Assembly: GCA_964356315.1 (NCBI GenBank)
Contig: CAYHHA010000003.1
Coordinates: forward strand, 12,010-76,009
From: an uncultured Gammaproteobacteria bacterium
GTDB taxonomy: Bacteria > Patescibacteriota > Microgenomatia > UBA10105 > UBA927
DNA length: 64,000 nucleotides
Direction of reading: 5' to 3'
A model generated the notes under the pieces. It did no database searches and was not told the origin of the DNA. It saw only the letters and a program-made list of their open reading frames with translations. Of the stretch, positions 1 through 64,000 are shown piece by piece. The translations under genes were made by a program, and so were the position numbers. How positions within the stretch are numbered: position 1 is the stretch's first letter; every line of letters starts with the position of its first letter.

Positions 1-3000
1 GGAGAGATATTCCATATCAAAAAAATACAGAGCTTTATAGAGGGGATTTTTACGCTGAAAGACATGCCACGCGACGCCATAAATTGGCAGAGCCTTCTTA
101 TACGTCTGTTCTATACTCATAAACATTGCCTTTTTCTGAGAAAGCGAAAGTGCTTTTCCATTTTCCCCGTAAATCTCAATATCTTCGTAATCTGCGGGAT
201 CAAAAGATTGCAAATCTTTGCGCAAAATTCCGTTTAACATCTGATTTGACAGTCGCCGTAGAAGCTCTTCATGTACTGCAGGAGGCAAGTTTATAATGCC
301 TTTCTTTTTCAAATCGTCTTCCAAAATCTTTCGGATATCTGCGGTAAGCTCTGTTGAGACAGCCGGTTGTCTTGCGTGCACATCATCTGGAGCATCGGGA
401 TACGTCGCTGTGGTGACATCTGTGACAGCCCGTGAAGGACCCTGGTTAGATCTACGAAATACCATTGCAAGACTATTGAAGAGGCGTTGAATGCGCGTAA
501 GAGGTTGCGTTTCCGGTGGAGTAGCTGGAGTGGCTTGAGAAGTAGCAATGGACGCTATGCGGGCCAGAAGATATGCTTTAATGGTTGCTATTTCTGGAGG
601 ACCTCGATCAGAGAACAGAGACTTATACTCAAGATCGCTTGGGATCATATCTACGATCTTTTCGAATTCCCCTGACTGGATAAGCGCTGGTTGAGCACTC
701 GCAACGCGCTGAGCGATTGCATCAAAATTCGAGAGGTACGCACGAGGCAACAACGCCGTAGCAGTATCGAGCGTTTCAGATCGACCAATAGTCCTAAACG
801 TCACTGTTTCCCCTTTGGTCACTCCAATGGATTTCGAAGATGGGGTGATAACTCCCCAAGACCCACCAGAGGTTGTGTACCACCCATAGGTGGGAATCGC
901 CACTGTTGTTACCCCATCAAAATACTCCCCTCCCGGAGCCATAAATACACAGTTCTCCCCCGCCGCAAACACACGGGAGACGAAGGGATTTAGAGCGGCT
1001 TCACAGCCGGAATCTTTCTGGACAAAGCCAGGGTTCATTTCTTGTACAGGCTTTTTCTGTTGTAAATATTCTGTCACAGGAGATATATCACGAAGCGATT
1101 TTCCTTCTTTCTCAAGCTCGATAACCCGATCAACACTGATTACATGCTGAGATACCCAATCAAATGCATTGACATTTGCTTCATTCATCCCATTCCTAAA
1201 ATAGTAATCATTCAATAGCCATGCCACAAACGCCTGGGCCTCATAGTCAGATCCTACCAAAAACATCAATGCATCGGGTGGAATAATATCTACGCCATTT
1301 ATTTCGTCCTTCACGATGATATCTTTCATTTTTACTCCTTTTGGCAAAACCATGAGCACTGCATATCCTTCAAAAAATCTTCCAGCCGACTCGCCGATTG
1401 GCGCCTTGCCAAATTCACCGTACATTAAACTTTCTCCCGGATTGTGACGAAAACCAAATTCGAGCGTATGCCGTAAGCCGTTCATTACCTCCTCTTTATC
1501 TCCACGGGACGGAGCGTGACCATATATACCATCTTTCTCTAATATCTTTCTCGCCACTTCGATTTTTGAATCATCATGATATTGATTCAGGAGTTTAGAA
1601 AGATTCACCATGTTGTCGTATGTCAGCCAATAAGGCACTAACTCATCGATCTTTAACTTATTCATCCGTGAAATCATTAATGTTTCAGGAAAGACAGCAT
1701 TCCCATTACTCCGATATGAAACTTTGTCTCTTAAGTCTGATGCGATATGTGTGTACGCTAATCCTCCAACAGCCATTACCGGTCTTTTCAGATAAACTGT
1801 GTTTCGACCAAACTCTTCAAACGTGAATAGTTGATTGTTATATTCAAATACATCATTGGGATGAATTTGGATTTTTTCCGAATCCACAGTCGTTCCATTT
1901 AGTAAAACGTTTTGAGCACCTGAAGGGATAACAACAAACCAATCGTTTCCTTCATGATGAATTTTTGCGTTTGTACCAATCAATACTGCGCTTGAATTAT
2001 CCTGAACAACCATCATGTCGAATACTGATTTGTTTAAAGAAGACAGCGGAATAATATCCGACCCCACGATGGTGATATCTGTTCCTACGATCATCATCGT
2101 CCGGTCGTTATCGAATTTAATCTGAGTATCTTTATCAAAGACATACTCATTTTTTTCTCCATTCAAGGTATATGTACCAGAAACCGGAATTGTAATCGTT
2201 TCGTTTTTGATCGTATATGTCTGACCGGCACTCAGAATCACGCAACCTGTTGAAGCACTTTGGGCAAACACACGGGAGACAAATGCCTTGAAGGGGATTT
2301 CACACCCTTTCTTTTTCTCTGTTTGAACCTCTATAGGGACTAAGTCGGTGGTTTTTGGAGTCTTTCCTGTCGATTTTCTAGCAGTGATTACACTTTGTTC
2401 TTCATACACATCCCACCCGAGACGTACGAGTTCGTTGATGAAATCGATCTTCGATCCATCCCTTTTTGAGTAATCAAAACGAAGGATAGCACCAGGACGC
2501 GCAACTCTGTCTATCGCCTGAACTGTCTTCCATTCTCCCCATTTGCCGATAGCTTGTACCGACATGATTCGATCGATGCTCTGATTTGGGATGTGCGCCA
2601 GACTATCCCAATCATCACGGACCAGCTGTACTCCCGATCGATTTGTCATCTGTCTATCGAAGCTATAGTTCAGATCAGCAGCTACCCATGAAATATTTCT
2701 ATCTCTATACTGTTGTTCGAGTTGTCGTATAGCGACCGCCTCGCCGGCTCCATCATCGAGCACCCGAGTGCCGGGGGTGAAAAATCCATCCACACCACCA
2801 AATATGGCCGATGGCTTCTCTCTCGCGAGGTATTGCTCCCCTGTCGACGCATAAAATGGTATCGACTGTATCTCCTCCGATGAGTTAAAAAGATGCGATA
2901 GATAGTCTGAGGCGTTTCGATTCGTCGTATTCCCATACTGAGTGAAGATTGGCTGCGGATCGATGATATCCCATACATATTGCCAGATAGATGTGTATGG

Positions 3001-6000
3001 GAGTGGTGCTACAGGAAGTGTAGTTTCCATCTCAGTATATCCCACGAATTTCGCTCTATCAAATCCTGGTAGCTCAATATCCTCTGGTATCCATACATCC
3101 TGACTTGGCTGCTCATCCGGCGTAACAGCTTTTTTGAAAGAACGTTTTGATAAAACCAGCTCATCACCACCTGGTGCTCGTGAAATCGAATACGTGACCC
3201 GGTGTCCTTCTCCAATTTCAAAAATATCATCTTCAAGGATATAGCGTGCATCCCAAATCCCGGTTTGCATATCTGATCCCAACAGTATGCGACCGGGTAT
3301 CGCACCAGGAGCATTTGCCAACGCGAGGTTTCCAGTCTTTGGATCGATAAAAAAGAGTGCGCCGTTATATGTAAACGTAGTGTATTTTTCTGGCCAAATG
3401 AGCGATCGAAGGTACCGCATCAGCTGTCCAAATGCACGAACCTGAGCTTCGCGTTTCGTTTTTGGAGTAGTATCTATCGTTATCTTTTTGGATTCCAAAT
3501 CAGCTATGAGCTTCTCTTCTGCCCTAAGCCAAGGAAATCTGGTTCGGAGCCAATACCCTGCTCCTTTTTTGAGAATCTTTTGCACATAGGCTGTATCAGA
3601 CGGAGTCACTGGCTTGACCGATCCCTTATCTGTTGTGAGTGTATCTATATAGGTGAGTAAATTGAGGTAAAACTCTCCATAGAGTGCTTCGGTATCGTTT
3701 AGATATGGTGGAGAGATAAATGAATTGGGAGAATCGAACGATAAAAATTGATCCTCATCGTCATTCAGAACAGATGGTTCTGGAAGCTCCCATTCGTGCG
3801 AGCGAAATATAGCTTCTGTAAGCTTTCTAGCTGAATCCGCAAACTGCAACGCTGCCTCATATCCTGCAGGTGATTGCATAGCTTCGCCCAATCTCTCCAT
3901 GATCTGCATTCCGAGGCCTGATTGTATGATGTCTTCGTCAAATGCATGATCCGTGAGGACATATGAGATGAGTTGCTCAAGCTTTTTCACTGCTTGTCCT
4001 TTATAAGAGTCCTTTCCTCTTTCGAGTAACCTATCTACTTCTTTTAGCGTTTTTTCGGTAACCAGTTTGATGTAGGAACAATCAGAACAGCGTCCTCCTC
4101 CCGTTTCCTGTATTACACTCTGCTGACTATTGGGCTTGCTACCATCTTTAGGTGCAATGGGTTCTGTGGAGTTTTTTGAAGCAACTCGTATGACCTCTTG
4201 TATGACAGACTCTTTTTCCGGGAAATTGGCAACCCCAAGATCAATGATCATCAGCCTACCATCTGGAGAGCGTCCGATCTGAGTCGTGGAAAAATCAAAT
4301 AATTCATATCGTTTCGCGAGGGCAAAAAGCCCAGGTAGTTGTTCCAAATCTCCCTCTGTGAGAAAATATTTTTGCATCAAGCGCTCTTTTTCCATGACGC
4401 CATTCGCGGAACTGATAGAAGCGAGTATTTTTTGATAATCCGACAGACCAATAATCTGATCAGTTTTATAATCAGATATTGTGACTATCGAAACAGCCTT
4501 TGAAAGAATAATGTAATATCCACCTGCTTCCGTCATCCCCCATCCCTTCAGAAACTGTTTCATATAGGGATCAGCGATCATCACGGCGATTTCGTTGAGC
4601 ATTTGTATTTGATTGGTTGTCGTCACAATGTTTATCTTCAACACTTCGTTGTTCCCTATGTCAAAGACTTGGCGTTGACCTCCAGATCCGATTGCCGTCA
4701 ATTCCCTAGTATTTATTTTCCTTACCGTTTCCTTCTGAGTTGCTTCAATAGTCATAGGCCTATACAAGCGATGAAGTTCGTCTGAAATGGAATTTTGGCC
4801 CCTCAGGAGAGGGATTTTCGTGAGTGGATCTGAGGGCGCTGGGGATTTTTCTTTAGCTTCAAGCGCTTTGCGTATATACGCGTCGATAGCATCGTTTTCT
4901 GGAGAGCCGCGTCCCGCCGTGAGATCTTTGTACCGTTGATCAGCTTTAATGATATTCATCACCACTTCCACATCACCTTGAGCCAGAAGCTCAGATTGGC
5001 TTATTACTACCTGAGAAATCATTGCATTGAGCTGGTGTTGAGTCGTACCATCGACATTTGCACTATTTTTCAAATAACTGGACATATTCATGAATATATT
5101 TTCCATTACTCCCATTTCTTGTTTATATATTTCAGCAGGTATTATCCTATAATCGTGCTCACCAAGAATATCCGCGATGATTTTCCTAATTACATTGATT
5201 TGGACATCTCCTGCATCCTTGAGATCAAATAACTTTCTATACTGTTGGAACATCACGAGATGAAGATCATTGTAAAATCCTCTCGTTCTCATGCGCTCAT
5301 CCGAAATTTGTAAAAGCTCACTGTTAATTTTCTCGTAGTCAAACGATGCTAGAAAATGTGCGTATTTTGATAGCGATTTGGTTTTTTGGAATATATATCT
5401 CTCTGTTGTTTTATCCTGGTATACGTCCCATCCGAACTCTTCAAAAATATCCAAGTACATCGGGTCAAAGTCTTGAGATGAGGTCAGCTGATCCAGAAGA
5501 ATTATTGCACCCATTTTCGCTTTTCTCGTCACCGCTGAAATCATTTTGATCGGATCCTCATTTGCTATTTCCGTGCCATGCAACATCGCACCCTGGTAAG
5601 ATAAAAACGTATCGACACTATTATCCGGAATCCCACCTAACACATTCCAATCTTCTTTTGATAGCTGCAAACCGGGTTTATGAATATCAATTGGCAACTG
5701 TTTTTCGTATCCGTTATCAATGCCGATAATTGTCGCATCTGGATACTTACGGGAAAATTCCAAATCCGCGACAGCCAGTCCGCTCCCCAAATTGAGCGTA
5801 ACATTTCCTTTTTTAAAGACATCTTGTTCAGTCGGAGATGCAAATGCAGGATCTGCGTCCGATGTTATTGCAGATAAATTCCTAGATCTGAAAAGAGACG
5901 CATATTCCGTCATGTTCCGTACAACTGACCATAGTCCTCTCCCGGCTTCCGTGTAAGTGACGCGTTTAAAAATCCCCATGGGGATTTTCACCGAACCATT

Positions 6001-24600: not shown

Positions 24601-24612
24601 GGGACAAGAAAC
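24434..24612 (-). repeat. Tandem repeat (units of 51 and 72 bp, core gtagcttcgtagcttagtagaacgagacatgggaca ×3) overlapping the 5' end of giant gene A; each unit carries an in-frame ATG (MSRSTKL[R/L]SY)
   Basis: Exact cores lie at 24,499–24,534 and 24,571–24,606, with a variant at 24,440–24,478. ATGs at 24477, 24528 and 24600 are all in frame, so the unit lengths are multiples of 3. Confidence 0.8.
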
Positions 24613-24699
24613 ATGAGACAAGAGAGTAGAAATGAGATGAAAGAATAGATGAAATAATTTCACGGTAATTACGGCGTAAAATAGCCTCAATTATCAGTA

Positions 24700-24735
24700 T
24701 GCAGAACCCCGTGAAATAGTGCAAGGGGTTATTAT
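24700..24735 (+). terminator. GC stem hairpin aaccccgtgaaatagtgcaaggggtt followed by ttattatatata (terminator-like on + strand; function unclear because no + strand gene lies upstream)
   Basis: Inverted repeat aacccc/ggggtt with a 14-nt loop and an A/T-rich tail. Confidence 0.2.
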
Positions 24736-24930
24736 ATATAAGTTGGTTAAGAAGCTTGGTAGCTTAGCAAATGGAAGTAGCTTAGACGGACAAAAAAAGC
24801 ATTTAGATTAGGATGAGAGTGAGCTTCGTGGCTTTGAATTTGGGGTAAGTAGCATGTAGTATGGAGAAAGGAGTACGACAATTCTCCCCTTATCCCTTAC
24901 TACATATACCGTACTACATTGCGGGATGTT

Positions 24931-25020: not shown

Positions 25021-25025
25021 AGTTC

Positions 25026-60900: not shown

Positions 60901-63900
60901 AACAGGTGGTGTTCCTAAGCTTCCATCAATATCTGTGGTTGATCGAGGCGTTTCTCTGGATGTGGCGCCCAAGTCACGCATTTGAATCGGCTCACCTCGG
61001 AACACATCTTGATCAAACAATGCTTTTTTAGTCGCCGTTTCCATAGAACGGATAGAATTAACATATTGATCCAGGCTCTTTACCTCATTAAGTGGCGTAA
61101 ACTTTGCTCCTGGTTCTGGCGAATTAGTAAGCAATTCTTGTCCATAGGATATTCTCTCGCGGCTGACTCGCTCATAATATACTTGTTTCACTTCAGGCGG
61201 GAGTAGTTTGAAGAATTTGTTATTTGAAGGGATGAGTTCAATACCACGTAGAAATGAATGAACTCGATTGATGGTCGCTAGTATATCTGCCGCACCTTTT
61301 GTACTTCCTCCACCGAGGGAATAATTTAAATCCGTCACTTGCCTGGCGTCCGCCATAAGTTGTTCTATGAATATCTTTGTTGTTGCGTATTCGGTTGTAT
61401 TAAATCCAGTGATTAACCGTCGTGCATTCATAGAATCCATAGCCTGATACATGGAGGCCAGTGTATCTCCGATCAAATTATCCGCCACTCGTTTGACTGC
61501 GGAGAGCTGACTGCGGGCAATAAGATCTGTTTCATTTTTATTTAGGAATTCCCGAAGCGTCGTCTGATTGGTGAAGGATGTGCCAATACCCACAATGTCC
61601 AATTCTGAATATCCGTCAAATCGTCCTCGATCACGACCTATTGCTTGGGAGAGCTCTGTCATTGTGGTGTCTTTTCCTGCGATAACCGTAAACTTTTCGC
61701 CAAATTTCGTCACTGAATCAACCCCCTTATGCATGCCGTACTCATAGACAGTGATAACTTTTTTACCTTTATTTGACCCACTGCGATACGTCTCGACTAA
61801 TGCGTCTAGCTCTGCGAGGTCTTTTATTTCCGTTCTCGTGCCATCTTTGGCGATTCTATAATGCTTCAAATTCGCATCGCGTACGATAATGTCCATTTCG
61901 GTGTGCTGTGACCGAATTCGACTTATAAGATCCAAGCTTGATCGTTCACCAGTTGCAATGACGACATGCTGAATATCTCCTCCTTTGATTTGAGTTGCGA
62001 AATCTCCATATGATGCCGATACAACTTTTGATATAGCATGTTGTGATGTGTATGTTTTACCGTCAAATACACCACCAAATATAAATGTATCCTGACTGAT
62101 TCCACCCACACCCATGTCGATGCCATAAATATTTTTAAACTGTTCCGCGACATATTTTGGCGTACCGGTAAAGCCGAATATTTCTGTGAAGTTTTTAAGG
62201 AAGGTGGCATAGTTTGTGGATGTGGCCGATGCAGTGATTGAGATGGCATTTACATCAACCGGCCCAAGCTTCGTGCCATTATGATACGTTGGTACTCCGT
62301 TATATACCTCTGTGCCGATCACTTCGAGGGCCAGTGCATCGTAGCCTTTACTCGGCGTGCGACCGGATATTTGATTTTCCTCGGCAAGCACTATTCGCCC
62401 ATCGCCATTCCTATAATGCACGCCATATTCTTTGGCAATAATATCTACGATTGATTCTGCTGCTGTTTTGCGTTCAAAAAAATCTGTCCGCATTTGTGTA
62501 AGCGCTTCTCTGGCAACTCCTGGGATTTCTGTTTTTTCTAATAATTCACCCAGCTTTGTTTGGTAGTCTTTACCTGTCTTACCCGCAAGCTCACGAGCTA
62601 TATACTCTTGAACCTTTGCTTTTGATGCAGGGTCCGTCATTTTTTCTACTGATTGTTTTAATAATTGTTCATACAATTTGCTTTGCACGCCATCGTCAAC
62701 AATCCTCCCCTGTTCTCCTGTGCGCGCTTCTGTTTTCAGTAGATTTCTTGCGCCATCCAAATCTCCACGTTTTATCAAATCTATAGCGTCTTTAATGAGA
62801 GATTCACCTTTTGTCACTTCATTGAATACCGATATTTGTGTTTTTCCACGTAAAGTTGAGCCTAAATTGGAGCGCTCACCATGGGACATCACATAATCTA
62901 CTTCCAACCGAAGAGATAACTGAGCCTCATCAGCTAGAAGCACTCCACCCTTCATTTTTTCCATGATGGCATACCCCTCTACCCCCTTGATGGATTCGAA
63001 AATGACATCTTTAGTCGTGAGTATAATTCTGGCATCAGCAAGCTCTGATGCTGTGCGTGGGCGCTGACCCTCGAAAATTGCGACCTTTTCGCCAAACACT
63101 TTTGAAAGCACCGCTTCTGCTTCATGAAGTTGCTTTGGGGTCAACTCTGATAGTGACTTCCCTTGTGGCAAATCAACATAATTTTCGATAAACAATCTCA
63201 ACTGTGCTTTATCACTTAAGACCGATGTCACCACTTTCCCTGTAACTTTTGCTTTCATGACAGCGATTTCAGGGATCAGCATAGTTGTTTTCCCGATGCC
63301 TGTGAGTGCTTCAAATAAAATACCCCGTTTCCCAACCTCGACTGTCATAGCTTTTAGAACGACGGAGGCTTGGTTTTTCAGCCCACCCTCAAATCCTCGA
63401 AGCGCGGATATCGACATATCACGCACTGGTACAAGCGTACCTCCTTCACCTGGAGTCAGAGTGATATAGGTTGATTCTCCTGCTTTTGTCGCTTTTTCAA
63501 ATACCACTTTTTGTCCGTTAACTGTGAATTCATATTTCCCGTCCAGTTGGCTTTTGAGAAGTTCTGCGACGTGTTTCCCAACACTTCGATCAGTGGCCGC
63601 TCGAATTGTGGGATCCAACCCGGTAACCGTTTCCGGCGTCGTAGCACCGAGTTTTTTGAACGATAATTCTGTTGGAACGTTTTTCCCTAGTATCGAATCA
63701 ATCTTCGCATCGACACTCACAAAAGAAGATAACTTTCCTTCTTTATGTGTTTCGAGGCGCACTTCATACTCAGCCATTTCCTTGTTCAACGTGTCGATGA
63801 TACGGTCGGATAGTTTGAATTTATTTAGGGATGATCCATCAGAAACATGGAATCGAGTTTCGGTTTTTAACACCCCATCGGCAAGCTGTAAATCTGCCGT

Positions 63901-64000
63901 ACTGCCAACCTGTGTTTTGCTTGCTACATCTAGATACAGGTTGCCTTTTTCATAGAGTATGTTTACTTTTTGCCCATTTATCTCCAGTTGATATCTACCT
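27928..64000 (-). CDS. Giant multidomain protein B (≥12,020 aa; 5' end/N-terminus beyond window end): SF2/SecA-like ATPase, internal TM helices, PP2C-like phosphatase, GNAT, Cys-peptidase-like, zincin-like motif, internal repeats
   Basis: The track ORF 27928..63873 (11,981 aa) is extended to 64000: the codons upstream of the first Met (GTG TTA AAA…) continue in frame with no stop to the window edge (…RYQLEINGQKVNILYEKGNLYLDVASKTQVGSTADLQLADGV-LKTETRF). The stop codon is TAA at 27928–27930. Confidence 0.9.
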   Translation of the reverse strand, partial: GRYQLEINGQKVNILYEKGNLYLDVASKTQVGSTADLQLADGVLKTETRFHVSDGSSLNKFKLSDRIIDTLNKEMAEYEVRLETHKEGKLSSFVSVDAKIDSILGKNVPTELSFKKLGATTPETVTGLDPTIRAATDRSVGKHVAELLKSQLDGKYEFTVNGQKVVFEKATKAGESTYITLTPGEGGTLVPVRDMSISALRGFEGGLKNQASVVLKAMTVEVGKRGILFEALTGIGKTTMLIPEIAVMKAKVTGKVVTSVLSDKAQLRLFIENYVDLPQGKSLSELTPKQLHEAEAVLSKVFGEKVAIFEGQRPRTASELADARIILTTKDVIFESIKGVEGYAIMEKMKGGVLLADEAQLSLRLEVDYVMSHGERSNLGSTLRGKTQISVFNEVTKGESLIKDAIDLIKRGDLDGARNLLKTEARTGEQGRIVDDGVQSKLYEQLLKQSVEKMTDPASKAKVQEYIARELAGKTGKDYQTKLGELLEKTEIPGVAREALTQMRTDFFERKTAAESIVDIIAKEYGVHYRNGDGRIVLAEENQISGRTPSKGYDALALEVIGTEVYNGVPTYHNGTKLGPVDVNAISITASATSTNYATFLKNFTEIFGFTGTPKYVAEQFKNIYGIDMGVGGISQDTFIFGGVFDGKTYTSQHAISKVVSASYGDFATQIKGGDIQHVVIATGERSSLDLISRIRSQHTEMDIIVRDANLKHYRIAKDGTRTEIKDLAELDALVETYRSGSNKGKKVITVYEYGMHKGVDSVTKFGEKFTVIAGKDTTMTELSQAIGRDRGRFDGYSELDIVGIGTSFTNQTTLREFLNKNETDLIARSQLSAVKRVADNLIGDTLASMYQAMDSMNARRLITGFNTTEYATTKIFIEQLMADARQVTDLNYSLGGGSTKGAADILATINRVHSFLRGIELIPSNNKFFKLLPPEVKQVYYERVSRERISYGQELLTNSPEPGAKFTPLNEVKSLDQYVNSIRSMETATKKALFDQDVFRGEPIQMRDLGATSRETPRSTTDIDGSLGTPPVARASHPAIESAKRSATIADGVKATANRVQRVIAITALNLDYLANSRTQATIQKQKMFSIGDEIPVVINGVTTTMKLEARFKINGVPLIGTPIPIPSIDFTVEDLSGQKGAVDKDVAGRLTNITTPNQTPIEKSDSDTAKNDSKTRMNSAVKVYLPIVAAELSSLLVAQGAPGVDVTALAHIAMNYEIIKTAGQDATAAHTALEAEVAKVLATKTITDPTKIQAIVNGITKHIDDEMVRVAPVSVPVIPAVAPILDKNGAPIVIGETITVTPSSFIYGQKQTGKVTAIATDGSSITIDVAGNLITYQAKDIGAGMHNVITKVTVSSFVTKDVLVKTNDLFWMSNTNGLTTGRDPADKIQVLVEQVGGRMVAKVGPASGSETLLINNRPVNVTSTALFELKKDDVVDFDGTRIVLSSNLNARGAQFTVSSITPAQAPAKSNWFTNTVVPALKDVGTWFSAPVSSNISLPRWVAGIIALAVGALVVAGIGAIAGAGGAVATVTATEAVASSEVATKAVWSINKVFAVFGGISLLLGSIGYVMTPSTTSKSPTGYIKYVLSSGVSSDVNASQSNGTKVTQVLQGANRIAGWYMLGGGFRGVAVAVMNESRRYIERMPETGWKQFALVAYETVLPTFGRSIPVGNATVKNVHFIVKTVIFLGTRASAIVSGNWWLPAMDVLRQIDYWANAPARVVTTTKLDAVTWLPSKAKTVLSYLSPFQDPPQWSQLNDLQRGLWIHNPTTPNKFISWVIKLLTATPGANPSYYLTRGVTGGAFLWKQFVPLPLAITEFLGNMALWIFDAIRISFTPGGFWAFISPDAFDQSIAGTSDVSKIPQYKKAVVIAENVGGLADIDVSTNTFVADARAQIVAANSTITDSGLRTQTVNDEMAIVVALAKRLFALRLAMDAVVVANTPAIIQAGITAPTLADPTAIKTILDLLKTATTTGISPTIEVSVLQDRADAFAKDIVAQIKDWETMVAAGGLPVAGLGVETAIVGKLGIVDQRYNALYLAWVKQKAAQINSIGGGTTPVVVIPVNQTLATPGQLNVGDEVQMLVSNTSSGETPSVEKGDVREKVTILPTDTINYGFIHVAQATGRVHVTVEGSETLGRNLSFSHTVPTNITSLGYGVFIHRAGKTYVIPLTEISTARLRAGGGGGGGAKIRTAGYYDLITKITPLNKEAVGLSIPPVLIVDLQEDEDVALIAYTDLKERVAVARDAKQKVSDREIERIALLLVNKNAYDENLTTLGNVETAINTLLGGFTYSTANVKSAEIARATDAIKAKAKDIAEKRSAFHTKVVSERVSLIESLVTGVSQTDILAKSEGILKLTSEFTLLKGVDTSADPKTYIGDELALLKPQLAELNIPPNTAPIVSAGIAVFGAGEAGARTIIETKVRDAVIKPATVDLPIYEAWVGAQTTILTEKARTAFIASSTPEQKAKSDIATLLPLLTSATVNETEVVQAVELIAKLKKLPPKVKDSAALTPGNLSKFEKALQKKIDALYDTAVRDVAGRLVLEPDYIVTTELDGIRNVYAAQRIAIRTIQANIQSLLAEAKQVADYAYSKSVWQHLISFVGSTKATELARAIPELGKNLISSQRAARAFVRLLIAAIDTEVGRTKPNYEKLSALQSVAEYIQSRWTDVHPFASVIKNSQVLISALSRLQAKLATRPAPLDINNVQTWQELVGYINAAKAADVIVSNLVDVLLTRKYGGMKVAEYSALTDAQKLTEIRTILGDHFSSDFQNSSDPVLSDEIADRLKGLNISEADIKSVFAQIKANSAFVKAIDGYLAEILARNEIVTSWPTIEDNVGTRVFVIERRGDGAFVVMPKNNNAIVDGKPLAEDQASDPIVEGTTVVHNGISYFVREYEGTLAVYDPASERMYKLFANGGMEIVDVKPFTGEWKVSLGSDSDQNIKVLDPGFVGKAFNIVRTATGVFTINNMPSRGRVGTFDGQPLSGIPLQNGTVIRLDNQAWTAVISARGDRLDLVEINNKYTLSVELDGTVHVVDNQSEGNITMEQGGPNGVIAAVHVSKPKSKKSGEDAIAVKPASIGSADGVSSKHVSRSPEGARYIADLMEEVKAEAKKLPLNKVQSFLEQQAFEINRKVMDEFGEDGASTYTGAFIHPAGYVFTIRVGDGDIMFGRDGKVYELDEVNTWTQKQNGPDYPSSSAYQDMYAMKSTGTMGLIPNMLGRDAFWGAKITSFAVTEGDTILISSDGLHKYFSKDSTKTESYAEHMVKAGKGSSPLEIERSIFNLIKPIVESRGPKAPDDVSVAVMRVSKLPKSSETVAVPVIQQAPVAPGGKKVIQFIPGTQKSVASTVKAQEILTELRKIFPEYDGLLDGPSYTDSTINNVISVALYELVQMTIANNNLKVDRAIPLEQEISRLIGIAPNGLKEGLRKLQGLLKPLVPTKQNEAKTRVTEALGEVSQILAQPDITLEGFKDASALIGAIVQRDINTAKMQRQVDEANAAFTKLRGEVFASTVTAYATDIAAAWENDPEYDGTIEKAELLKWKEVGVTPRAISLANSKLLDQAQSLYDAAVLEKTNQEIEQLNKQYGTISTVEELQQTVQDLLPRYQELETLLSENPEALALAQKATGALTDLIEETIDPMTLRELYVGLYADPNFETAQVIASYEAILTQLGYTSKEITSYSKDMLANAKDLADMNRAIDALKANTKDQALLDLLSTITADSSVGDARKVIQKYLTLFTRELQRTLRTRTAADELVWFGQIASIIQSEWTGVHPFTSIVKKIVDFNKTVTKLNKKLATVQKNTPQQITIKNGPTLVDKGLVTSDQFTSIFSGVTAYTATYFKRANGVFEATNTPSGGSFNVDRERASIQTKTGGETPLVKIESSELAEPVYLYFAGLDTSGQPQWIQYEVSSTGSSGTNTLTNINPVVETKKSNISSLIDEIKAFKQSIADANPLENWNQADPAYNKTTHVITVRNDSNELVGFLTLHTTDSNGKKAEADRMIVHPDYQGQDIATTMIKKAQELFQEITLQAVPSGLPIAKGTILDEADIDVLVSMYEKFGFALALRSGDMRSGDWHGKSMIWKKQSQPADVTEKEYAKALKDLQSAIESGKAPDVKKAQTALTTLARLSPQQWKTVGLKYAPRVLKITDAITALQSTKRVSMIAFVANEFANAAFPVKGVNQSLKDLRSVLDAARGVAAPTKKVGLVFGDPREDAIRQLVRAAQSGSTAMQSQSTIRSLPSNKQVSDYNGNLEKLFIDEALVIANQSHDPAAVQKAHDRNVQLVAENNLFDQKGTGNVVLHGVPLAQVSDKGEYGVLAADYYGSVGTIPNAVFMSKPGQIFQKDTPIDVINRTKAKEYGVSTAAEKRVTLVMDFDDQTMQQRSAGQVSDSKDFIASIGVPATAVRAIIINDRADLDTAIDAALSFDFYVPIYLSSGTLLFTESEFTDISYGFFQKAAGQVLSFGVDFMSEALQSAEAGIQSNFTYTAEAEIQKIVDGIVGINPKAKVGAQKYAKTQIQNIRHDIAEAKKKEPEYKTVEFTGIPSLAYALHSSGSLFGSSNDAISLINTRYLASGQLPTTVIGPKLLRPSEMKPQMYNGGRNPVLRNCNFSSCVTASLQNAIIILNQNNPEIPLPKNGEAELINKAIEIQFGTTNKPDPNAYSAADPVGFMMQTATHVVEELYGEKIDTLSDRNRGVNSRSIPALMETFRRGGVATFGVPGENHAMLLYGYDGVNKKILGWDQRLNVARDFTLAEFTRMINDDTGFAYMLFFAPVQKDPKVEVEEVLSSAFASNTGITPAKGDFPKIVEKVAKENGTTEGVFNAALAALNDPVVVALLKDALLNLPVDTKKAEQPYWAELIVRAALANDLTPADRVEYIKQVLKGIQLALRDGSILLSSAKQFVDVSALRAYPYGDGRTFNAGISSLLAGVDGLENPTWRVDIRYMGNLTAKELLFTILYMRHNKKIELQSATVEEKRTAFVNFFADPINEADLLLNILREEQGSRNATVGMLDFISGRPNLADDDADSVGVYKKVFEAAKTKANGMDRAMVGALARKREEVETAFLAADDPYTEAVTQLTAVAKAAKFDGKAIPEAVRSFWVAQTTKTFITTLNARLGKAQMDRTILSAIMQSIETEDLDEAWFLSDTPARIEADLKRIETDNTLISLRGRVAPLRAYIANQKMNVVHHVIAMSLSDVEKQGYDGVKQASDTIEKLNKRLNALGVQLTDVHRIGAKTRWTAASLRTELSTQYALGKENGEIARVNEFIQQTLLPAFEGNVPAAVAKLINSAQSTGVKGIAELVKVVVREAEQNTRGAQVDRQTLSFWSQVLYSIQTDLKTQLPVYDVISRTTKLTQSIASLKEKRNKAWAIRLYKDLLQDLEKLGINIPEEYIQANDYVGVIAAAYIRLHQLPAGPSERKSYVIETIRDISAEVAVITGDIQSPTSMLISAMVKDEDRDAENPEALALAQKATGALTDLIEETIDPMTLRELYVGLYADPNFETAQVIASYEAILTQLGYTSKEITSYSKDMLANAKDLADMNRAIDALKANTKDQALLDLLSTITADSSVGDARKVIQKYLTLFTRELQRTLRTRTAADELVWFGQIASIIQSEWTGVHPFTSIVKKITDFNKTVAQLNKKLKAINATGESQSSVAQAVFNELLTALQNANTTTDTVALAAAVKTATALSIASWESAVSTFNAQPQADSFVKQVIDAFGKIRDEANIDAIVMTLKPVIEKWKSLDELRPILYKRLDGHIQKTIRSQNPFADVYKNHSIEISKGNVNEFALMITELKVSIDSLKKSNDLTYINAVLGVSDPFLKVLTEFGFENSANVQELRESFINLKARKTILDVAVAKHSNTPEEIQYAINEIQAGKNRLSTAVFIKQPEYEVVTSEAPLVFSNFAEFKRTMQAWLTKSAGKDLVIAVDLGSRVEYRSVSSLLQFLEDYGVYDVVSGTFHVGDDTVYGLFKYNGMALTETATIEAYYKGAKMYYLTPVPTPPANAQKPVVVVIAAPVVDVDFKTLLSDLTDALKDRDVTRVREAVTALGQIQKVGQVDLKNTKTAIGSLARAIRAVQKAGNVDILKALVSASIIPLGAGNKMVEVRDVLKIVQEDLKTSQVPSSSDLELIVQGMKEEERTAKELLTQKLARSEADFVIITDEMRAQITSILSTYSNLTEAQKNKIARYTIHVLVALDNRINNIGDAIIKVNTEFPGFLAPHEADAISVSLEYILGSKNNSFALKTLTDSDLKEVISAVVAKEALKYDLPIQTKETLIKLLQQENSSYVYDENSVSDPINDIIVFRKEDSDKAHVQGGGALNLARTDTTDQDKALTLFHEKLHLKISALRDASTTESYWMPIDSESQEIVVTALQYLYAKKIGLPTEQIEKSSKYWGGAIGLARVLERLKTSGKFDWTDPIKRSELYKMALSSNFSPVIEAYVEAFGGDKKKIAEYFSSVTDGYFYNSQEILISAQRDMKMLVASQLFPQSSTLGPVIKQSTLDELNAKTKAEVNEFQAFILRKGDDEKIVYVGITTAPPKSDAPASQAQASDSTVKQEVSIGTIPKDGKSYYLWMNNGKMEIRANRLETTDPLVSVEASTTSENLTVGSIGSHRVNNVPVTSTLRPFVFSLNNTNAGSFTIDTITINFKRSANGGFDLFEEKNVAAQSAPAQPNVAGNQEQIVNALKSKLVTDAQKITLVLNLSNADVVQPAIANAALEFLGNYQIRSRDEFSSLVAIRQLWFRDAALNINQNPLYRTFSNQMSSTRITLYQTVNTSLEVFVKEENGFKTFKGTVTGGTIGYNRNNTITQTMPFSGQTVGDYERTGSPTGEVAVGGVNYFRLINPQILTPVLAAYAQKQAEFDASLAKTTEIVPESRVVPQAGVIYRLQQSMFGGTAKSLKMNSTENAHIRVISGNMEISNQYDLDRNPDKREWFINKASSEDVAINGREFTKPQILKAGDEIRFGNTRHDAFTVSFDAEGNLLLTATTVANRTTNTQPSSSASTSTATNAETELETIIATITKEPTLQAQLLAATVGVRDSVAIRQFIQQRANSAGWKPDSTNVTNNIYKKLLDTKKFPPNTDAQMKLLAKSFQAQMFAATADKKKPAAEKVQSQAPLKQAQTKPAVTKSTASTKAPNDDIEKAFTTIGLDPSVREIARSIIVAIQAELSSPDPINKKRRGAYISVNSQSPSRLSLMVSGHIQAIIAGDEWRHITLNITVGAQEEQLLQVLFGDMDAARTMAVAIAPQATKDIRNSFKSPLAGGGGPSNTKTSVRTYLPTQFQAMMDGGDEFSARKRTRIGDLVARSGIGCEVGIHILPVVYAQATSCAPNQALTYALNTLTDAPWYTVVNTTDGAIDWFQTFLKGTRSLGSATPSLSLTGKQQFAFAASSLPTPGEPLNRATYIQLYVLIEGASGMLEVNSKNQSELAAALIDPKNADMIGSFLEAKDVDPVVAKQYLQAMSLMIGFVPAPMWSEDVVTSLYTVVDALRDISTDNGKQLATLFAQFISSGSKDEAKKQWKSTFSTFFTDVLKIPEEIAQADAFLFGNKEHAGLLGILLSNYNEMAMFEGDDFTNPRFIRQRGARGVIAKTLEVAYEAGKTGGDLPPVRNKVGASDTTSVESQLKLFQLNVTNTAKPKKSKDEASTYWTETELEAAMQEQYDAGKREALDIQASAFLKTVVMPLVKGKDKFKAFAQINLTKKSLGDLQAFLTYVEIHVQDRLGKNLQKGELEFMDKMLTGVLNGLKNQAPLVANLSRIQQVTDLSAQVAKLSGRDDKQESFTREVEGIQRVGLSILPADLQSKHYARIIASLYSQTMQRNGGYMSGSADSIAIDALVKSITAILTASNDQESLLVVSLMNDQVLHDLPLTVIENVQKTPDGSIPAETFALWNRQLEVATNPVIEKAQPISEALDKLQQEISRTQPVENVGYADSVQKALGNVKQVFGSDVSAVYAGAMNTDKEGAVLVPTNRIEHAELLRNVEIALRDYGTQIPDTLTKDIAQLFDELVKPEFKPSDFDNSNANIIAFDLVTDEVVQRLKALLEAYGKQYGFAPEFIELTAGTEKFAHTFARLSGYKKFAVHVLVGIIQKGDWNTNSVGTDVRAFRTEIADQSYERVIKPLESLRKELSNADAVMKATRNVLSLLQNRVSEAVGQTGLLELYPAPKAEDATLWNDAVYADRLTTWVQSLLDSLTPTDAGPSVIKLQMEKSLESIQALLDGYKGTKLSDEETMKQMEQKMTSVLSEIKSPVKSTKDTFLDAVRASVASNPNSFLVLLDPSFIRALFENMQDSQGSLHGEFSSLGSSIFAKVPPESTVIAKLEEFAEQVKKSSTIDMAQLSEFDNLMGATVGTYGVTEEQIAVSPGKFLEAVLKSANVNIKNFAGSPLSAFQQTIQTPEGRLAIAGAYVNVWRSMDKQLLDVQKLKGGTAEQVKDAPDSTRNKLTQLMKSANIKFGLGIAYNESLTLEQNASILIAALEKDGQKVDAYKKLFLYTEPPMQRVRNLTVKLLEEVPQTWKESTTEYEALATGFINEFVSSGFPLDKIQSDMAGTGAQVTRLQKAMGELATSFQTGTNTPQEAMQQFSLYMPSLVQLLGSVSMKDLPTVVTELQKAIAAIQKVTSFGEPEPKNADEILTNPAFLKELLAFIAPTGLQTKELNRPILAAHLASLNTSGKNYDLYVFLRPFAEAVFSQIPDKAVQDEKKSAGNTMIDLLLTMEPTITLADASRDSVIKSILPALGLYTSVSQLTDAVEAIQANPEFRMALTGIQSQLNEARESAVSVERLLSVYVQTIFSVGFEKRSELPTVLSALKKSVDDLDGMKTGWVMPKADDKNPESAFVLAQANTTKITKVLAENSLGRNNSAISNVALLRLTNELGRYVYARLQQSKPIEAPRGGNANTKGSSLATAPLFHVDPAFLEVKSITPDVIFDPSTLPFQAQVGEFASTSWESVEFSTIFSDSVSSWLLPPEDIVKAVKRFVGYDPAESMMGQLAGHDDVPGGYRNNLTDYQVETELRAHRPVVISRDGRSILIQSNEDKTDVAYKYFERDSADFPYTSVQFDGVTYHSTIEKTASTMVQIYTELAKTFNIGVSSKESMTVQFEGDKKSETTLSTISLWKAMGSPQVPVFQGKVLITYKDKTVLLVGSQDGQFAVYEVPSEAQISQIERRTLRHIIYRNLPSYLRSVPNVKHMIDALLSGVFPIGAAMDAGFDLARSAEVVSQSAGIAAQFVSDGVAPIDAIPMVNAILRAAIKKDVTGDTAAFFESIRSLMQTSITPEGWYVSADATANGFTTANEARLREIVGALFTSQGISQEPSLVNAFVDAIGIYLWNRIAADAKTGESYGLKIPEMTSSHKEDYLNISEFGNDSILDVTAEYLREDRTLLAKKYDESRKEHGDVDQLQTAVQRQLRTGASTQSLHDVLKISDSVAFDETTIRTIIGDIQTLEADKARANSNENLDRVELNKNIEALAKKLQEQYQTLGIYYVGNDGFKFTFKDKSGHDVVIDITTPTPHELVQLRAFIESDMTLTSQQKVTQLAQLPTVVSYGSMGSIGFMVMNSQKTYDKPIQMKDVGYGVFIITKVPNPYIAYIQQQVFLKKQLALYDDRAKWFTLALENPEYLPIIETLTYGNRARFTYGIEHEESLLEESLVSSLILTAIKDKWGIKKLAIALMAENAVPFIHKNEKQSASSINNTAIYSNLDEIELRLRYFEGKTTINPFANILKLPVDDVGIHQDLQEKVTKLGKKINVAIEGKRYDLRRAGIMGTWVDASDKRWVDDGHHRQTKALEEQIKTGEKIVAYYRDLTPQLLIDQGRGKILEVMEANEKDLCGGKCYDVRGGVKYFTQSAAKKLGGILNFRESRGTKQDLLVFLYTTGIRDPDILSSLEIAQDTSQAEYALKILGLPKGMVKFALNLSDIEGEGHQILAEKLLNLSVTLPPEAADQLWSYIQPFIVQESLKNMGSDINATDDDVQEVSTIQQILDWPFAERGYFGELIQPKALTFIANKLNAWSYFESRYEYLGREEFAKNIQSEWNRLQGVENIYSVMTLYINTLSKEEKPELLQKIGFSNSYGAIIGDIYDKFLFEKIALQTNEGVFAEWLESWKSVDPAYNPYIGELVFLQLFGTPSVQLSAYPWKSKIEFIEFADGTLKQYLLKKQKEVAKKSKEEKLVFNDPDVIASLIESLTFDNNNWVTLSMLYAHSDLKTSPEEWLTSLLLVMAKTTTSTYRVSLGPDFEDNGWDKYYKSKSIEMFDAIHVFVKKYGADLNSYFFTQQTIKRMKNVQTIFETLTNEAKERVNTSPITIKMLVKEFTENNRKVTLGGLTQRTELEEAETLLESTTYEDLAVQYEAGLKKRIENAYRMAEFKIKQGKRIDAQDEVKTDGLFGTGLFSQVERPAISAHFEALPEGDKQIIIEAFKTEVATIVSEFARYAEIASTAMVYADRFETEAQLYIYGLQMIRFANTIGNIKSIDDVQTESISLSTASRLFKADEASATVIVPQAEPILSFDIFASKVNDRTITALQTFLGTTEDTIQRINAGIDAYHDTMWNDSMQGQAPTSPENSEVNVDMSLWPEEPDVQSAIRINPKESKEKRSVYTESVFVIQKSDITLADAPVEYKKYFVKIGESGDISTTSLNEENSVYVGVHKTTKNFVITNGPWWKNAKQRPSVTRRYSAKDNTDLQSGDVLGLAYYGIMTPQYFRVYIDKSGDLYLINIPAKNIDAVLKAREQFYSKEIINSNPISPKSVQSSQSSPNFLDRLIVPAKEVASVIAEFRANFDIATSPWRSVKDEIERTTDFAKAKKDLTRVVTAYNSDKSVNLSPLTSLLYGELESSPIRGFVEQLLLDSPKQLSSGDVTSLEKQLRKWLVEQEVLHRDVFDAEYTRVNDQFTEMGMPLKTANADAKTVPIVSKDDVAFEKSLYANVKEQLINELPKGTRPESVTETDIQERLKSILGIYDQRTGVIVIRSSVAFLAKSEGADGPNRAYIRDLIAHELSHDLVREYSPYLTPEANEKLAIVLMIARRAHELRQNGAVDSASGSVWQQATLSVIGDPANLEENPGIVSEAYAELYHQFETSIFRVLFAGNVSTEDRLLAIASYFNATRELKPSKLGRAGIEKAMAEAFRAALGSRASSLNPGEIEAYLKGTDFLQNESDNIPIKMDVAITGTYPSYAQKAGINLQPYRILVVVQNEYVREEIRRNLLNYGADRDNILIADSQATFKRYVNESPNVVIVDGHDDPEKIRNALNIPVVIYSNTALRIRGIPCVSPGDGEYMLAAAVMSAEERLDVNSPPMHYLMAPSSKKSSIASQPSSSTPEQKEVVVGALQNGKQSLRTLYTSSEIVITPDAVQIDVKGDISIVKINGIAFPHKQYRSAPADIGGGMMRLGESTLIRSTDLRVGDTVEFNGSETVYIVGIDVKGRVALFNQGDLLGEPVVQFDSEISPKNGVYINAERGVFMGRIIAHSDLVDARSKILNAIDSKYSLNAADALSVKRVLEEYSMSSSETTTIKLSDGRTIDILVRVNNTIAFSAWKLQRETAPQAVTTTPSKEVLSTKKSSVPSTVPVESASLAVGKIGKGLADSSDIPFHTSTIHVGGGDVTVTNDRYSIVVDSPSIIGELSAQEIQASAVTFAKLVDSAMNNFNPVLFESDSDRRNAISSKVRQAVDDALSKEMLVTGNMVFSIHIPYEKNGMQYMFSYVVGDPNQYVIHANGAYESLFTTKSLTPEDVTRILNRQNPASWEDTDLFVKAWSALDDSERQKYQFLYNSGTGSTPVSFLLPNMIAYGNSYPIQDGDTFFFGSDAVEKGTSDVSDRLKQVSEAIKKSTTLQNAASTIQSIYVGAQTGAQSWSDMLFGVPKQKAMSIRNVDDFGFVLMRPVKSTKQGLVARASDCVSFNPLVGRVYAVTFGEVGNTCVLFLRAPFRAKAEAIKAFTVGKKDGLGAGFASFTNSLFTSEAERNASAVFGGEAGATVPAISIQSIRASLPSREDITELAKDYLIRPFVTAGYDLYDFFRQDRTVPVTNPC
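30935..31070 (-). other. HEXXH zincin-like motif near C-terminus of giant B (AYIRDLIAHELSHDLVREYSPYLTPEANEKLAIV)
   Basis: HELSH is followed by a Glu-containing helix. It is possibly an ImmA/IrrE- or minimal-zincin-like fold. Confidence 0.3.
47123..47623 (-). repeat. Intragenic direct repeat copy B (aa ~5417–5586)
   Basis: See copy A. The offset between copies is 5,544 bp (1,848 codons, so in frame). Confidence 0.9.
49684..50260 (-). other. Papain-like cysteine peptidase-like segment (C39/C70-like Cys…His arrangement) in giant B
   Basis: …NPVLRNCNFSSCVTASLQNAIIIL… (candidate nucleophile Cys) … GENHAMLLYGYDGVNKKILGWDQ (His followed by an aromatic/Gly-rich strand). Motif-level only. Confidence 0.35.
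51754..52191 (-). other. GNAT-family N-acetyltransferase-like domain in giant B
   Basis: HVITVRNDSNELVGFLTLHTTDSNGKKAEADRMIVHPDYQGQDIATTMIKKAQELF. This is GNAT motif A (V.P.yqG.GiG..L). Confidence 0.5.
52667..53168 (-). repeat. Intragenic direct repeat copy A (~501 bp, 100% identical to 47,123–47,623); encodes ENPEALALAQKATGALTDLIEE…SEWTGVHPFTSIVKKI (aa ~3569–3738)
   Basis: Nucleotide-for-nucleotide identity read directly from the sequence. The track shows identical + strand ORFs at 47345 and 52889. Confidence 0.9.
54088..54771 (-). other. PP2C/PPM-type Ser/Thr phosphatase-like domain in giant B
   Basis: …YTGAFIHPAGYVFTIRVGDGDIMFGRDGKVYELDEVNT… (anvGDSR.yl.r.G…lT.DH), …GDTILISSDGLHKYF… (lll.SDGl.d) and …PDDVSVAVMRV (DDiTvvvv). 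Confidence 0.5.
55900..56420 (-). repeat. Third, diverged copy of the same ~170-aa module in giant B (…SVAEYIQSRWTDVHPFASVIKNSQ…)
   Basis: 'gcaaatggatgaacatcggtccatcgggattgaatatattctgc' at ~55,981 versus 'cttgtaaatggatgaacaccagtccactcagattgaataattgaggc' in copies A and B. Confidence 0.5.
57439..57459 (-). repeat. (GGT/GGA)7 run encoding Gly7 (RAGGGGGGGAKIR) in giant B
   Basis: + strand reads accaccaccaccacctccacc. Confidence 0.8.
59284..59499 (-). other. Two predicted transmembrane helices inside giant B (aa ~1459–1488 WVAGIIALAVGALVVAGIGAIAGAGGAV; ~1508–1530 WSINKVFAVFGGISLLLGSIGYVM)
   Basis: Strongly hydrophobic Ala/Gly/Ile/Leu-rich stretches. The mirror-image + strand ORF 59096..59830 is the Ala/Pro-rich antisense artefact. 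Confidence 0.6.
61590..63320 (-). other. SF2 helicase/translocase-like ATPase (SecA/DEAD-like) region of giant B
   Basis: Walker A EALTGIGKTTML (aa 189–200, nt ~63,283–63,300), motif II LLADEAQ (aa 313–318, nt ~62,925) and helicase-C/arginine-finger ELSQAIGRDRGRFDGYSE (aa ~740–757). This resembles SecA's QLRGRSGRQGDPGSS. Confidence 0.55.

Follow-up and report, generated by a model that had tools for sequence, protein, structure and literature searches.

Two giant genes side by side in a probable Patescibacteria contig, one of them from a rare family with an SF2 ATPase core and an FHA-PP2C pair

A stretch of 64,000 nucleotides of contig CAYHHA010000003.1 (assembly GCA_964356315.1), referred to below as the window, was found to be filled for the most part by two giant open reading frames (ORFs), G1 and G2, both on the minus strand. 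Comparison of G1 with its homologues showed that it belongs to a rare, lineage-specific family which has a conserved superfamily 2 (SF2) ATPase core and an FHA-PP2C pair. Since the named homologues of G1 are Patescibacteria, the window most likely comes from a Microgenomates-like member of this group, which likewise goes by the name candidate phyla radiation (CPR). We propose, as a reading with about an even chance of being right, that G1 would be a membrane-anchored host-contact protein with a cytoplasmic tail that serves as an enzyme platform, that G2 would be its partner, and that embedded peptidases probably do the cutting.

The giant genes and the relatives of G1

The two ORFs have the following extents in the window.

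27928..63999, minus strand: G1, giant ORF of 12,023 codons within the window, stop at 27928-27930
1..24420, minus strand: G2, giant ORF which, if started at the ATG at 24420, has 8,140 codons within the window

The G1 frame ran from 63999 to 27931 without any stop and the G2 frame was open from 24690 to the window edge at 1, and in both genes the G+C content of the codon positions followed the coding order GC1>GC2>GC3. An exact look-up of the 408-residue protein encoded between G1 and G2 led to contig NODE_68 (123,744 bp) of ENA assembly ERZ4201063, on which the full gene calls were 14,806 residues for G1 and 11,849 residues for G2. Because these calls exceed the window, the window is without the N-terminal 2,783 residues of G1 and the C-terminal 3,709 residues of G2, and residues (aa) are numbered here from position 63999 for G1, which is not its true start, and from position 24420 for G2. 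The G1-G2 junction was also present in a second assembly, ERZ4201064, with 1 mismatch in 17,765 nt, and the same junction sequence was found in two Logan run assemblies. The stop-free length, the periodicity and the repeated assembly indicate that G1 and G2 are real genes and not chance ORFs, which bears out the two giant proteins proposed in an earlier reading of the window made from the sequence only. A difference in G1-G2 spacer length between the assemblies was rejected, as it came only from a different call of the G2 start, which was put at ATG 24420 by one gene caller and at GTG 24663 for the other assembly. The N-terminus of G2 is hydrophobic and signal-peptide-like; the signal peptide suggested earlier for this protein hangs on which of the two starts is used.

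Domains were searched with Pfam on 1,000-residue tiles and with NCBIfam, and motifs were then read in the sequence. Recognisable domains made up about 5% of the approximately 20,000 residues encoded in the window. A PDB sequence search with the whole of G1 gave 0 matches, and neither Rfam families nor tRNA genes were detected when the window was scanned for them. A word-indexed protein search with the PP2C-GNAT or the ATPase region as query gave no match and also missed the query's own protein; with the family profile it returned a single 923-residue fragment.

Relatives of G1 were obtained with a full HMMER search (phmmer) of aa 150-1349 against 1.84 billion cluster representatives, which gave 24 matches. 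Protein relatives from this search are designated P0001-P0027, and the loci from the genome and metagenome scans described below are designated L005-L014. The best match, P0001, has 7,512 residues and is 43% identical over 886 residues (E 3.7e-173); the other best matches were P0002 (3,899 aa), P0007 (5,270 aa), P0015 (5,602 aa) and P0018 (6,230 aa). All named phmmer matches were assigned to Candidatus Gottesmanbacteria, Candidatus Beckwithbacteria or "Patescibacteria group bacterium"; the contigs of two such matches measure 417 and 567 kb. Six loci came from a profile scan in which each GTDB species was represented by one genome, four in Patescibacteria/Gottesmanbacteria metagenome-assembled genomes (MAGs) and two in bins labelled Gammaproteobacteria, and a giant ORF filled all of the 17-21 kb fetched at each of the six. 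JGI metagenomes contributed four more loci, one of them from 0.2-um-filtered Hainich groundwater. When 50,697 phage records and 72,556 plasmids were searched by tblastn, no relatives were found, and IMG/VR gave none either.

The family is defined by a core of about 800 residues with the motifs G.GKT, DE(A/G)Q/H, (F/Y)TG(T/S)P, YE.G.H.G.D and GRDR, all of which are present in G1 as ALTGIGKTT, LLADEAQ, FGFTGTP, VYEYGMHKGVD and GRDR. An ATPase motor had been part of the sequence-only reading, and this core now accounts for it through Pfam, conservation in the family and a structure model.

61000..63435, minus strand: conserved SF2 (DEAD/ResIII-type) ATPase core, G1 aa 189-1000, from motifs, family profile and model

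Pfam matched the G1 core weakly as ResIII (aa 212-359); among ten family cores the ResIII model matched 8/10, DEAD 4/10 and SecA_DEAD 0/10, and among PDB sequences the core profile found nothing but weak helicase matches. An AlphaFold2 (AF2) model made with the 10-sequence family alignment (window 60853-63435) was confident, with a pLDDT of 76.6 and a pTM of 0.78. It contains two RecA-like lobes; about 250 mostly helical residues are inserted between motifs II (DEAQ) and III (TGTP), and lobe 2 is followed by a helix of 50 residues. The top Foldseek matches in the PDB were Bacillus subtilis SecA, Mycobacterium tuberculosis SecA2 and Clostridioides difficile SecA2 (E 1e-9 to 2e-7, TM about 0.3), followed by RIG-I-like and DinG/XPD helicases. 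The core can safely be called an SF2 ATPase whose domain layout resembles that of SecA; it is no established member of the SecA family. Predicted viral structures fitted the core better than SecA, namely the DUF3638/"ubiquitinyl hydrolase 1" proteins of Klosneuvirinae (E 3e-12, TMq 0.43), with DUF3638 matches from the giant viruses Hokovirus, Hyperionvirus and Fadolivirus, and a link between the CPR core and the eukaryotic and giant-virus DUF3638 ATPases is possible on the basis of the model.

The second element of the family signature lies further along the G1 tail.

55015..55209, minus strand: FHA-like domain, G1 aa 2931-2995, just upstream of the PP2C domain (Pfam FHA E 0.012)
54088..54762, minus strand: PP2C/SpoIIE-type Ser/Thr phosphatase, G1 aa 3080-3304 (Pfam PP2C_2 E 1.1e-8)

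The PP2C_2 score exceeds the gathering cut-off, the metal-binding Asp motifs I, II, VIII and XI are intact (GEDAIAV, SADGVS, SSDGL and PDDVSV), and the region is homologous to that of relative L010 (E 6e-17). In the tail of L010 an FHA domain (E 2.8e-13) is followed by PP2C (E 1.8e-10), in the same order as in G1. FHA is also present in L006 and P0008, and the FHA domains of L006 and L010 match the model of the YscD cytoplasmic domain as well.

The order of parts in complete homologues was read from P0002, P0007, P0015, P0018 and P0025. Their N-terminus is basic and has a membrane anchor near aa 15-22, after which a QDIR.RA motif is often present; next come 600-2,000 residues rich in Cys (1.5-6.5%) with Pro/Thr linkers and then a second hydrophobic cluster; the remainder is poor in Cys (0-0.6%), and in it a long coiled coil precedes the ATPase core, behind which the tail extends over a great length. 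Similarity to G1 outside the core is patchy. Pfam placed a metallophosphatase (Metallophos) and an intein in the tail of L005, and inteins/Hint, PT-HINT, NYN and HATPase_c in that of L007, while P0007 has GGDEF- and HD-like stretches from sequence reading alone and P0015 a C39-like sequence recognized by eye alone.

Several side observations were made on these relatives. The inteins or Hint domains are located at about 15060-16000 in L005 and at about 14770-15720 and 20730-21390 in L007. In L007 the N-terminal half of a Hint domain is directly followed by a strong NYN nuclease match (E 5e-57), and in L005 a weak match to the polyvalent-protein domain LPD3 (E 0.0016) lies inside the intein. Apparent frameshifts occur in the giant ORFs of L006 (12597-12727) and L007 (12655-12820), where another frame takes over after a short overlap; these could be either sequencing errors or real disruptions. 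A LysM-M23 peptidase gene lies upstream of L010.

Further modules of G1 and G2

Outside the ATPase core and the FHA-PP2C pair, four further elements were located in G1.

59281..59511, minus strand: membrane-helix-like hairpin of two hydrophobic segments, G1 aa 1497-1573 (hydropathy scan and sequence)
51820..52122, minus strand: GNAT acetyltransferase, G1 aa 3960-4060 (Pfam Acetyltransf_7 E 3.5e-9, Acetyltransf_1 E 1.5e-8)
49720..50232, minus strand: candidate papain-like Cys peptidase, G1 aa 4590-4760 (motif reading, C4611/H4722/D4740)
31000..31497, minus strand: HExxH module (HELSH, aa 10992), G1 aa 10835-11000, a segment conserved in L007

The two hydrophobic segments of the hairpin agree with the internal transmembrane helices that had been suggested for this protein, as do the PP2C and GNAT domains (Pfam E of about 1e-8 and 3.5e-9) with the phosphatase and acetyltransferase assigned to it. 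The catalytic residues proposed as a check held in the Asp motifs of PP2C and in the HExxH and Glu of the M48 domain of G2 described below; the GNAT motif A is a variant, QGQDIA, with Asp for Gly at position 4 of the consensus Q/R-x-x-G-x-G/A, in a domain that scores above the Pfam cut-off. A Cys peptidase had also been claimed for G1. The arrangement of C4611, H4722 and D4740 is plausible for a papain-like enzyme and the peptidase itself is unproven: Pfam gave no match even at E 10, the AF2 single-sequence model had a pLDDT of 38.7 and was unusable, and BLAST found no similarity to the C39-like module of P0015. The HExxH motifs of G1 (HEKLH and HELSH) are bare, without Pfam support, and the M48 zincin that had been placed in this protein was found by Pfam in G2. 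Just before the hydrophobic hairpin, at aa 1400-1450 (window about 59650-59800), a stretch resembling the C-terminal part of an FHA domain was noticed by eye (LLINNRPVNVTSTALFELKKDDVVDFDGTRIVL); Pfam detected no FHA at these residues, and FHA domains lie at a similar spacing after the ATPase in L006 and P0007.

The modules of G2 are listed below.

23221..23589, minus strand: M48-like zincin, G2 aa 278-400 (Pfam Peptidase_M48 E 2.6e-10, aa 278-359)
18682..19290, minus strand: ABC1/UbiB-type atypical kinase, G2 aa 1711-1913 (Pfam ABC1 E 3.9e-10, NCBIfam UbiB E 7e-9)
8716..9135, minus strand: S-adenosylmethionine (SAM) methyltransferase module 1, G2 aa 5096-5235 (Pfam Methyltransf_25/31/11, aa 5106-5218, and paralogue hidden Markov model, HMM)
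7498..8622, minus strand: second zincin-like module, G2 aa 5267-5641 (IAHEIDHA, EMGGE; homology to P0018)
5410..5835, minus strand: SAM methyltransferase module 2, G2 aa 6196-6337 (HMM from modules 1 and 3, E 1.5e-38)
2386..2805, minus strand: SAM methyltransferase module 3, G2 aa 7206-7345 (Pfam Methyltransf_25 E 0.012, aa 7220-7310, and paralogue HMM)

The M48 domain has HEIMH at aa 350 and EEFRAD at aa 381, that is, the HExxH motif and the downstream motif of the Glu ligand, and scores 40.9 bits against a cut-off of 20.3, with the N-terminal half of the model alone being matched. The catalytic motifs of the ABC1 kinase are intact, with the Lys in GKFKRP, the Glu in EEELVFENE, HADLQPGN and LDAG, and its Pfam score is above the gathering score. 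The three methyltransferases are class I paralogues which all keep the G-x-G loop and the motif-II Asp in the alignment; none contains an NPPY motif. The ABC1 kinase-like domain and threefold methyltransferase of the earlier reading were thus upheld by Pfam and HMM evidence with intact motifs. The second zincin shares 29% identity with the module at the C-terminus of P0018, a G1-type giant, and a profile of this zincin gave no match among PDB sequences. G1 and G2 together have four HExxH modules.

Repeats, cysteine loops and the DNA between the giants

Tiled comparison of G1 with itself revealed an internal repeat.

52609..53169, minus strand: G1 internal repeat, copy a, aa 3611-3797 (about 187 residues)
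47065..47625, minus strand: G1 internal repeat, copy b, aa 5459-5645

The copies share about 500 nt of identical in-frame DNA at a distance of 5.5 kb. This perfect repeat could have come about by recent duplication, by gene conversion or through a collapse in the assembly. Near aa 2644-2695 there is a third, weaker copy. In G2 the tiled comparison placed the methyltransferase modules in a larger repeated unit and found two more repeated modules.

Cys is scarce in both giants, with 10 residues in G1 and 16 in G2, which is 5-10 fold below the neighbouring small genes, whose proteins contain 0.7-0.9% Cys. Of these 26 residues, 22 lie within 25 residues of another Cys, compared with 1.8 expected. 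A loop motif, C-x(4-22)-V-[YF]-A-x(3-10)-C, occurs in 7 copies (2 in G1 and 5 in G2) against 0.0025 in shuffled sequences.

G1, minus strand: Cys-loop copies at aa 7313-7330 and 11890-11912 (motif search)
G2, minus strand: Cys-loop copies at aa 26-49 (window 24274-24345), 2131-2151, 5735-5755, 7373-7393 and 7806-7824 (motif search)

The first copy in G2 directly follows the hydrophobic N-terminus, and the motif is absent from the homologues of G1. Its role may be that of a disulfide or metal loop, or it may mark where modules meet or where the proteins are processed. Being common to both proteins, the motif ties G1 and G2 together. Their codon usage is also close (Jensen-Shannon 0.008; GC3 0.35 in both), and the match of the second zincin of G2 to the tail of P0018 provides a Rosetta-stone hint that G1 and G2 work together.

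The two genes had been described as a tandem locus; they are not strictly tandem, as 3.5 kb with three small genes intervene. The features of the gap and of the G2 leader are as follows.

26674..27900, minus strand: DUF4143/AAA_14 ATPase gene, 408 residues (Pfam E 9e-40 and 9e-32), starting 27 nt past the G1 stop
25645..26503, minus strand: 86-residue ORF overlapping an AbiEii nucleotidyltransferase toxin gene (AbiEii Pfam E 5.8e-12)
24420..25604, minus strand: repeat-rich non-coding G2 leader of about 1.2 kb
24420-24614, minus strand: three tandem 51-72-nt repeats directly before the G2 start as called; every repeat has an in-frame ATG and then MSRSTKL(R/L)SY
24935-25031 and 25508-25604, minus strand: AT-rich direct repeat of 97 nt containing GGATTTA-like sub-repeats, the copies being 92% identical and 573 nt apart
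25074-25129: 28-nt palindrome between the AbiEii gene and G2

The 86-residue ORF has a weak DUF6922/AbiJ_NTD3 match, and together with the AbiEii gene it looks, from these matches, like a putative type IV toxin-antitoxin pair. The GC3 of the small genes is 0.42-0.44 (0.44 in the DUF4143 gene) versus 0.35 in the giants, and their codon usage lies just beyond the 95th percentile of equal-sized pieces of G1. Because both measures deviate from the giants, the small genes may be an inserted defence or toxin-antitoxin cassette, of which the DUF4143 gene is probably a part, although this evidence is weak. The tandem repeats before G2 could provide alternative starts or a regulatory leader. The 97-nt copies enclose about 570 nt of the non-coding DNA that separates the AbiEii gene from G2. 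Promoter- and terminator-like matches between the giants were no more frequent than in shuffled sequence.

Proposed working, alternatives and known systems

In the working that we propose, the Cys-rich N-terminal ectodomain of G1 would face outside for host contact or sensing, and the very long, Cys-depleted tail would lie on the cytoplasmic face, with a coiled coil, the ATPase and then signalling and modification enzymes whose set varies with the lineage, the FHA-PP2C, GNAT and HExxH modules in the case of G1. That the tail starts on the cytoplasmic side is suggested because anchor, ectodomain and second hydrophobic segment have this order in the homologues and because the enzymes need ATP, SAM and acetyl-CoA; the hydrophobic hairpin at aa 1497-1573 would then keep the tail on that face. 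Driven by ATP and regulated through phospho-Thr, the tail would serve as a platform on the inner side of the contact site. G2, with its zincins, ABC1 kinase and three SAM methyltransferases, would be the partner of G1, given the common codon usage, the shared Cys-loop motif and the zincin module that is fused to a G1-type giant elsewhere. The embedded peptidases would probably cleave the polyproteins into working pieces.

A regulated platform of this kind can be compared with the FHA-PP2C phospho-Thr switches that operate at membranes, such as Fha/PppA/PpkA of the type VI secretion system, and FHA domains are also found in YscD of the type III and EssC of the type VII secretion systems. In G1 an FHA domain likewise stands directly before PP2C and a kinase-like domain is present in the partner G2; unlike those systems, the pair is fused into a giant polypeptide, the kinase is of ABC1 and not of Hanks type, and no secretion apparatus was identified.

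We have to admit that a number of points weigh against the proposed platform. About 95% of the residues of G1 and G2 had no Pfam, NCBIfam or PDB sequence match. The topology comes from a crude hydropathy scan, and the anchor and ectodomain of G1 are taken from the homologues alone since its own N-terminus lies beyond the window. The assignment of the contig to Patescibacteria is taken from the homologues, and the MAGs of L007 (CAZQTD010000001.1) and L010 (CAYMYO010000005.1) are labelled "uncultured Gammaproteobacteria bacterium", perhaps because they were wrongly binned or labelled or because a CPR contig was binned together with its host. Of the search for relatives of both translations that the sequence-only reading had suggested, the half concerning G1 yielded a family of giants; for G2 no full-length relative was detected, and a scan of JGI metagenomes with its N-terminus gave no match. 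In L006, the sole relative whose giant ends inside the locus, the next gene is small and not a second giant. Finally, the Cys depletion and the paired-Cys loops would suit a tail exported in unfolded form as well.

The main alternative, which we consider unlikely but well worth weighing, follows the sequence-only reading, where an envelope-spanning or exported assembly had been suggested: the proteins would be an exported multi-effector array similar to MARTX or polymorphic toxins. A SF2/SecA-like ATPase would drive the Cys-poor tail out after host contact, and embedded zincin or papain-like peptidases would free kinase, phosphatase, acetyltransferase and methyltransferase modules for the host cytoplasm. 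Such enzyme types are typical of injected effectors, the tails are strongly depleted in Cys, and four HExxH modules are at hand. The tails vary among relatives where the core is kept, as in conflict systems, and Hint/PT-HINT and NYN nuclease matches occur in the tail of L007; however, the Hint matches in the relatives look like ordinary inteins with inserts, and the position of FHA-PP2C is conserved, as would be expected of a cis-acting regulatory module. The likeness to MARTX and polymorphic toxins extends to giant size, modular enzyme cargo, candidate internal peptidases and variable tails, but in Pfam scans G1 and G2 were without RTX or RHS repeats, CPD, PT-HINT and an immunity gene, and no secretion-system genes were seen within the window.

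The ATPase bears on the same alternative. Solved SecA and SecA2 structures were its top PDB matches, its insertion is at the site that the preprotein-binding domain occupies in SecA, and lobe 2 is followed by a long helix; it shares with SecA and SecA2 the two RecA-like lobes, Walker A, DExx, TGT(A/P) and GR.R motifs and the insertion between motifs II and III. In contrast to these, G1 lacks Pfam matches to SecA_DEAD, SecA_PP_bind and SecA_SW, the first of which was missed by all ten core sequences, the TM value is about 0.3 and the insertion is mostly helical. Helicases of the PRP22, DinG/XPD and RIG-I-like types score equally, and giant-virus DUF3638 higher.

A more far-reaching variant, which we regard as improbable, is a contact-dependent, self-delivering polyprotein specific to CPR bacteria: the ectodomain would dock, a SecA-like motor would thread the tail of >10,000 residues across the envelope, and embedded zincin and papain-like peptidases would release kinase, phosphatase, acetyltransferase and methyltransferase effectors, perhaps by cleavage at the C..V[YF]A..C loops. 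If true, this would mean host-bacterium reprogramming by protein delivery without a known secretion apparatus.

Origin from a mobile element is very unlikely. The giants would in that case be polyvalent proteins encoded by a phage, a plasmid or a conjugative element of a CPR bacterium and introduced together with its DNA to act against host defences. Phages and conjugative elements have been described as encoding polyvalent proteins (Iyer et al. 2017, PMC5512222), and G1 and G2 resemble these in having many unrelated enzyme domains per polypeptide, with an SF2 helicase-like ATPase, methyltransferases and zincins that could process the polypeptide occurring together; an AbiEii toxin and a DUF4143 ATPase are present in the locus, and the weak LPD3 match of the L005 intein (E 0.0016) also points this way. 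We put this reading low because the phage, plasmid and IMG/VR searches gave no relatives. Moreover, the methyltransferases are generic class I enzymes without NPPY and lie on another polypeptide than the ATPase, and Pfam scans of G1 and G2 gave no MuF, ArdC-N, LPD36 or NPPY methylase-helicase dyad. Contigs that carry relatives measure 417-567 kb and so match CPR chromosomes in size, homologues have membrane anchors and Cys-rich ectodomains, no virion or type IV secretion system genes or other mobile-element context were seen in the window, and G1 and G2 are several times larger than the polyvalent proteins. That the locus is an assembly chimera or a decayed, non-expressed giant pseudogene is scarcely credible: the perfect repeat of about 500 nt in G1 could be a mis-join and L006 and L007 have apparent frameshifts, but the 36-kb and 24-kb frames are stop-free with coding periodicity, the same sequence recurs in two assemblies and two Logan run assemblies, catalytic motifs are conserved and homologues reach up to 43% identity.

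The proteins closest in kind are the giants of Omnitrophota ("Archaeovorin"-type, "multi-enzyme" class), noted also in Actinobacteria, which have methyltransferase, GNAT, Ser/Thr phosphatase, peptidase and SecA-DEAD-like modules, are membrane-associated and mostly sequence-unique, and in some cases lie near mobile or defence genes (bioRxiv 10.1101/2023.11.21.568195; 10.64898/2026.06.07.730766). Like modules having been reported there, the domain set is of a described kind, although it had appeared undescribed in the sequence-only reading. The Omnitrophota giants and G1/G2 are alike in being ORFs of >10,000 residues in ultrasmall, host-dependent bacteria, in carrying many distinct enzyme domains per polypeptide with no dominating repeat and much that cannot be annotated, and in having a divergent DEAD-like ATPase that adjoins putative membrane segments, with mobile or defence genes close by. 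G1 and G2 fall below the threshold of at least 30,000 residues used for "giant" by West-Roberts et al. (10.1101/2023.11.21.568195). They differ further in that relatives of G1 were found only in Patescibacteria, that Pfam matches to SecA_DEAD, glycosyl-transferases or -hydrolases, dockerin and NUDIX are missing, that membrane-helix-like segments are few and recognisable domains far fewer, and that there are two giants side by side, with an ATPase core and FHA-PP2C signature of their own. G1 and G2 are a lineage-specific variant of the giant proteins known from other tiny host-dependent bacteria. Among CPR bacteria, large membrane or surface proteins of 1,500 residues or somewhat more with adhesion repeats have been reported in Absconditicoccaceae (PMC13059738); these too are targeted to membrane or surface in CPR episymbionts or predators, whereas G1 and G2 have 12,000-15,000 residues, are non-repetitive and bear enzymes. 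In the searchable literature we found no description of the Microgenomates-type family, of the ATPase-FHA-PP2C signature or of paired genes for 12,000-15,000 residues.

CPR bacteria are ultrasmall and attached to hosts, and their genomes are typically about 1 Mb, so that about 80 kb spent on two genes would be a very large investment, which presumably serves the host-dependent lifestyle. The link to an episymbiotic lifestyle drawn in the sequence-only reading is reasonable, because the relatives of G1 are giants found only in Patescibacteria/CPR. To our knowledge, the molecular basis of CPR host dependence is poorly known beyond type IV pili. The locus and its approximately 30 relatives define a search handle, an SF2 ATPase core followed by FHA-PP2C, with which such proteins can be found and compared, and which opens the question of an independent origin of giant multi-enzyme proteins in CPR and in Omnitrophota. 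With catalytic motifs that are intact, their modules are concrete and expressible.

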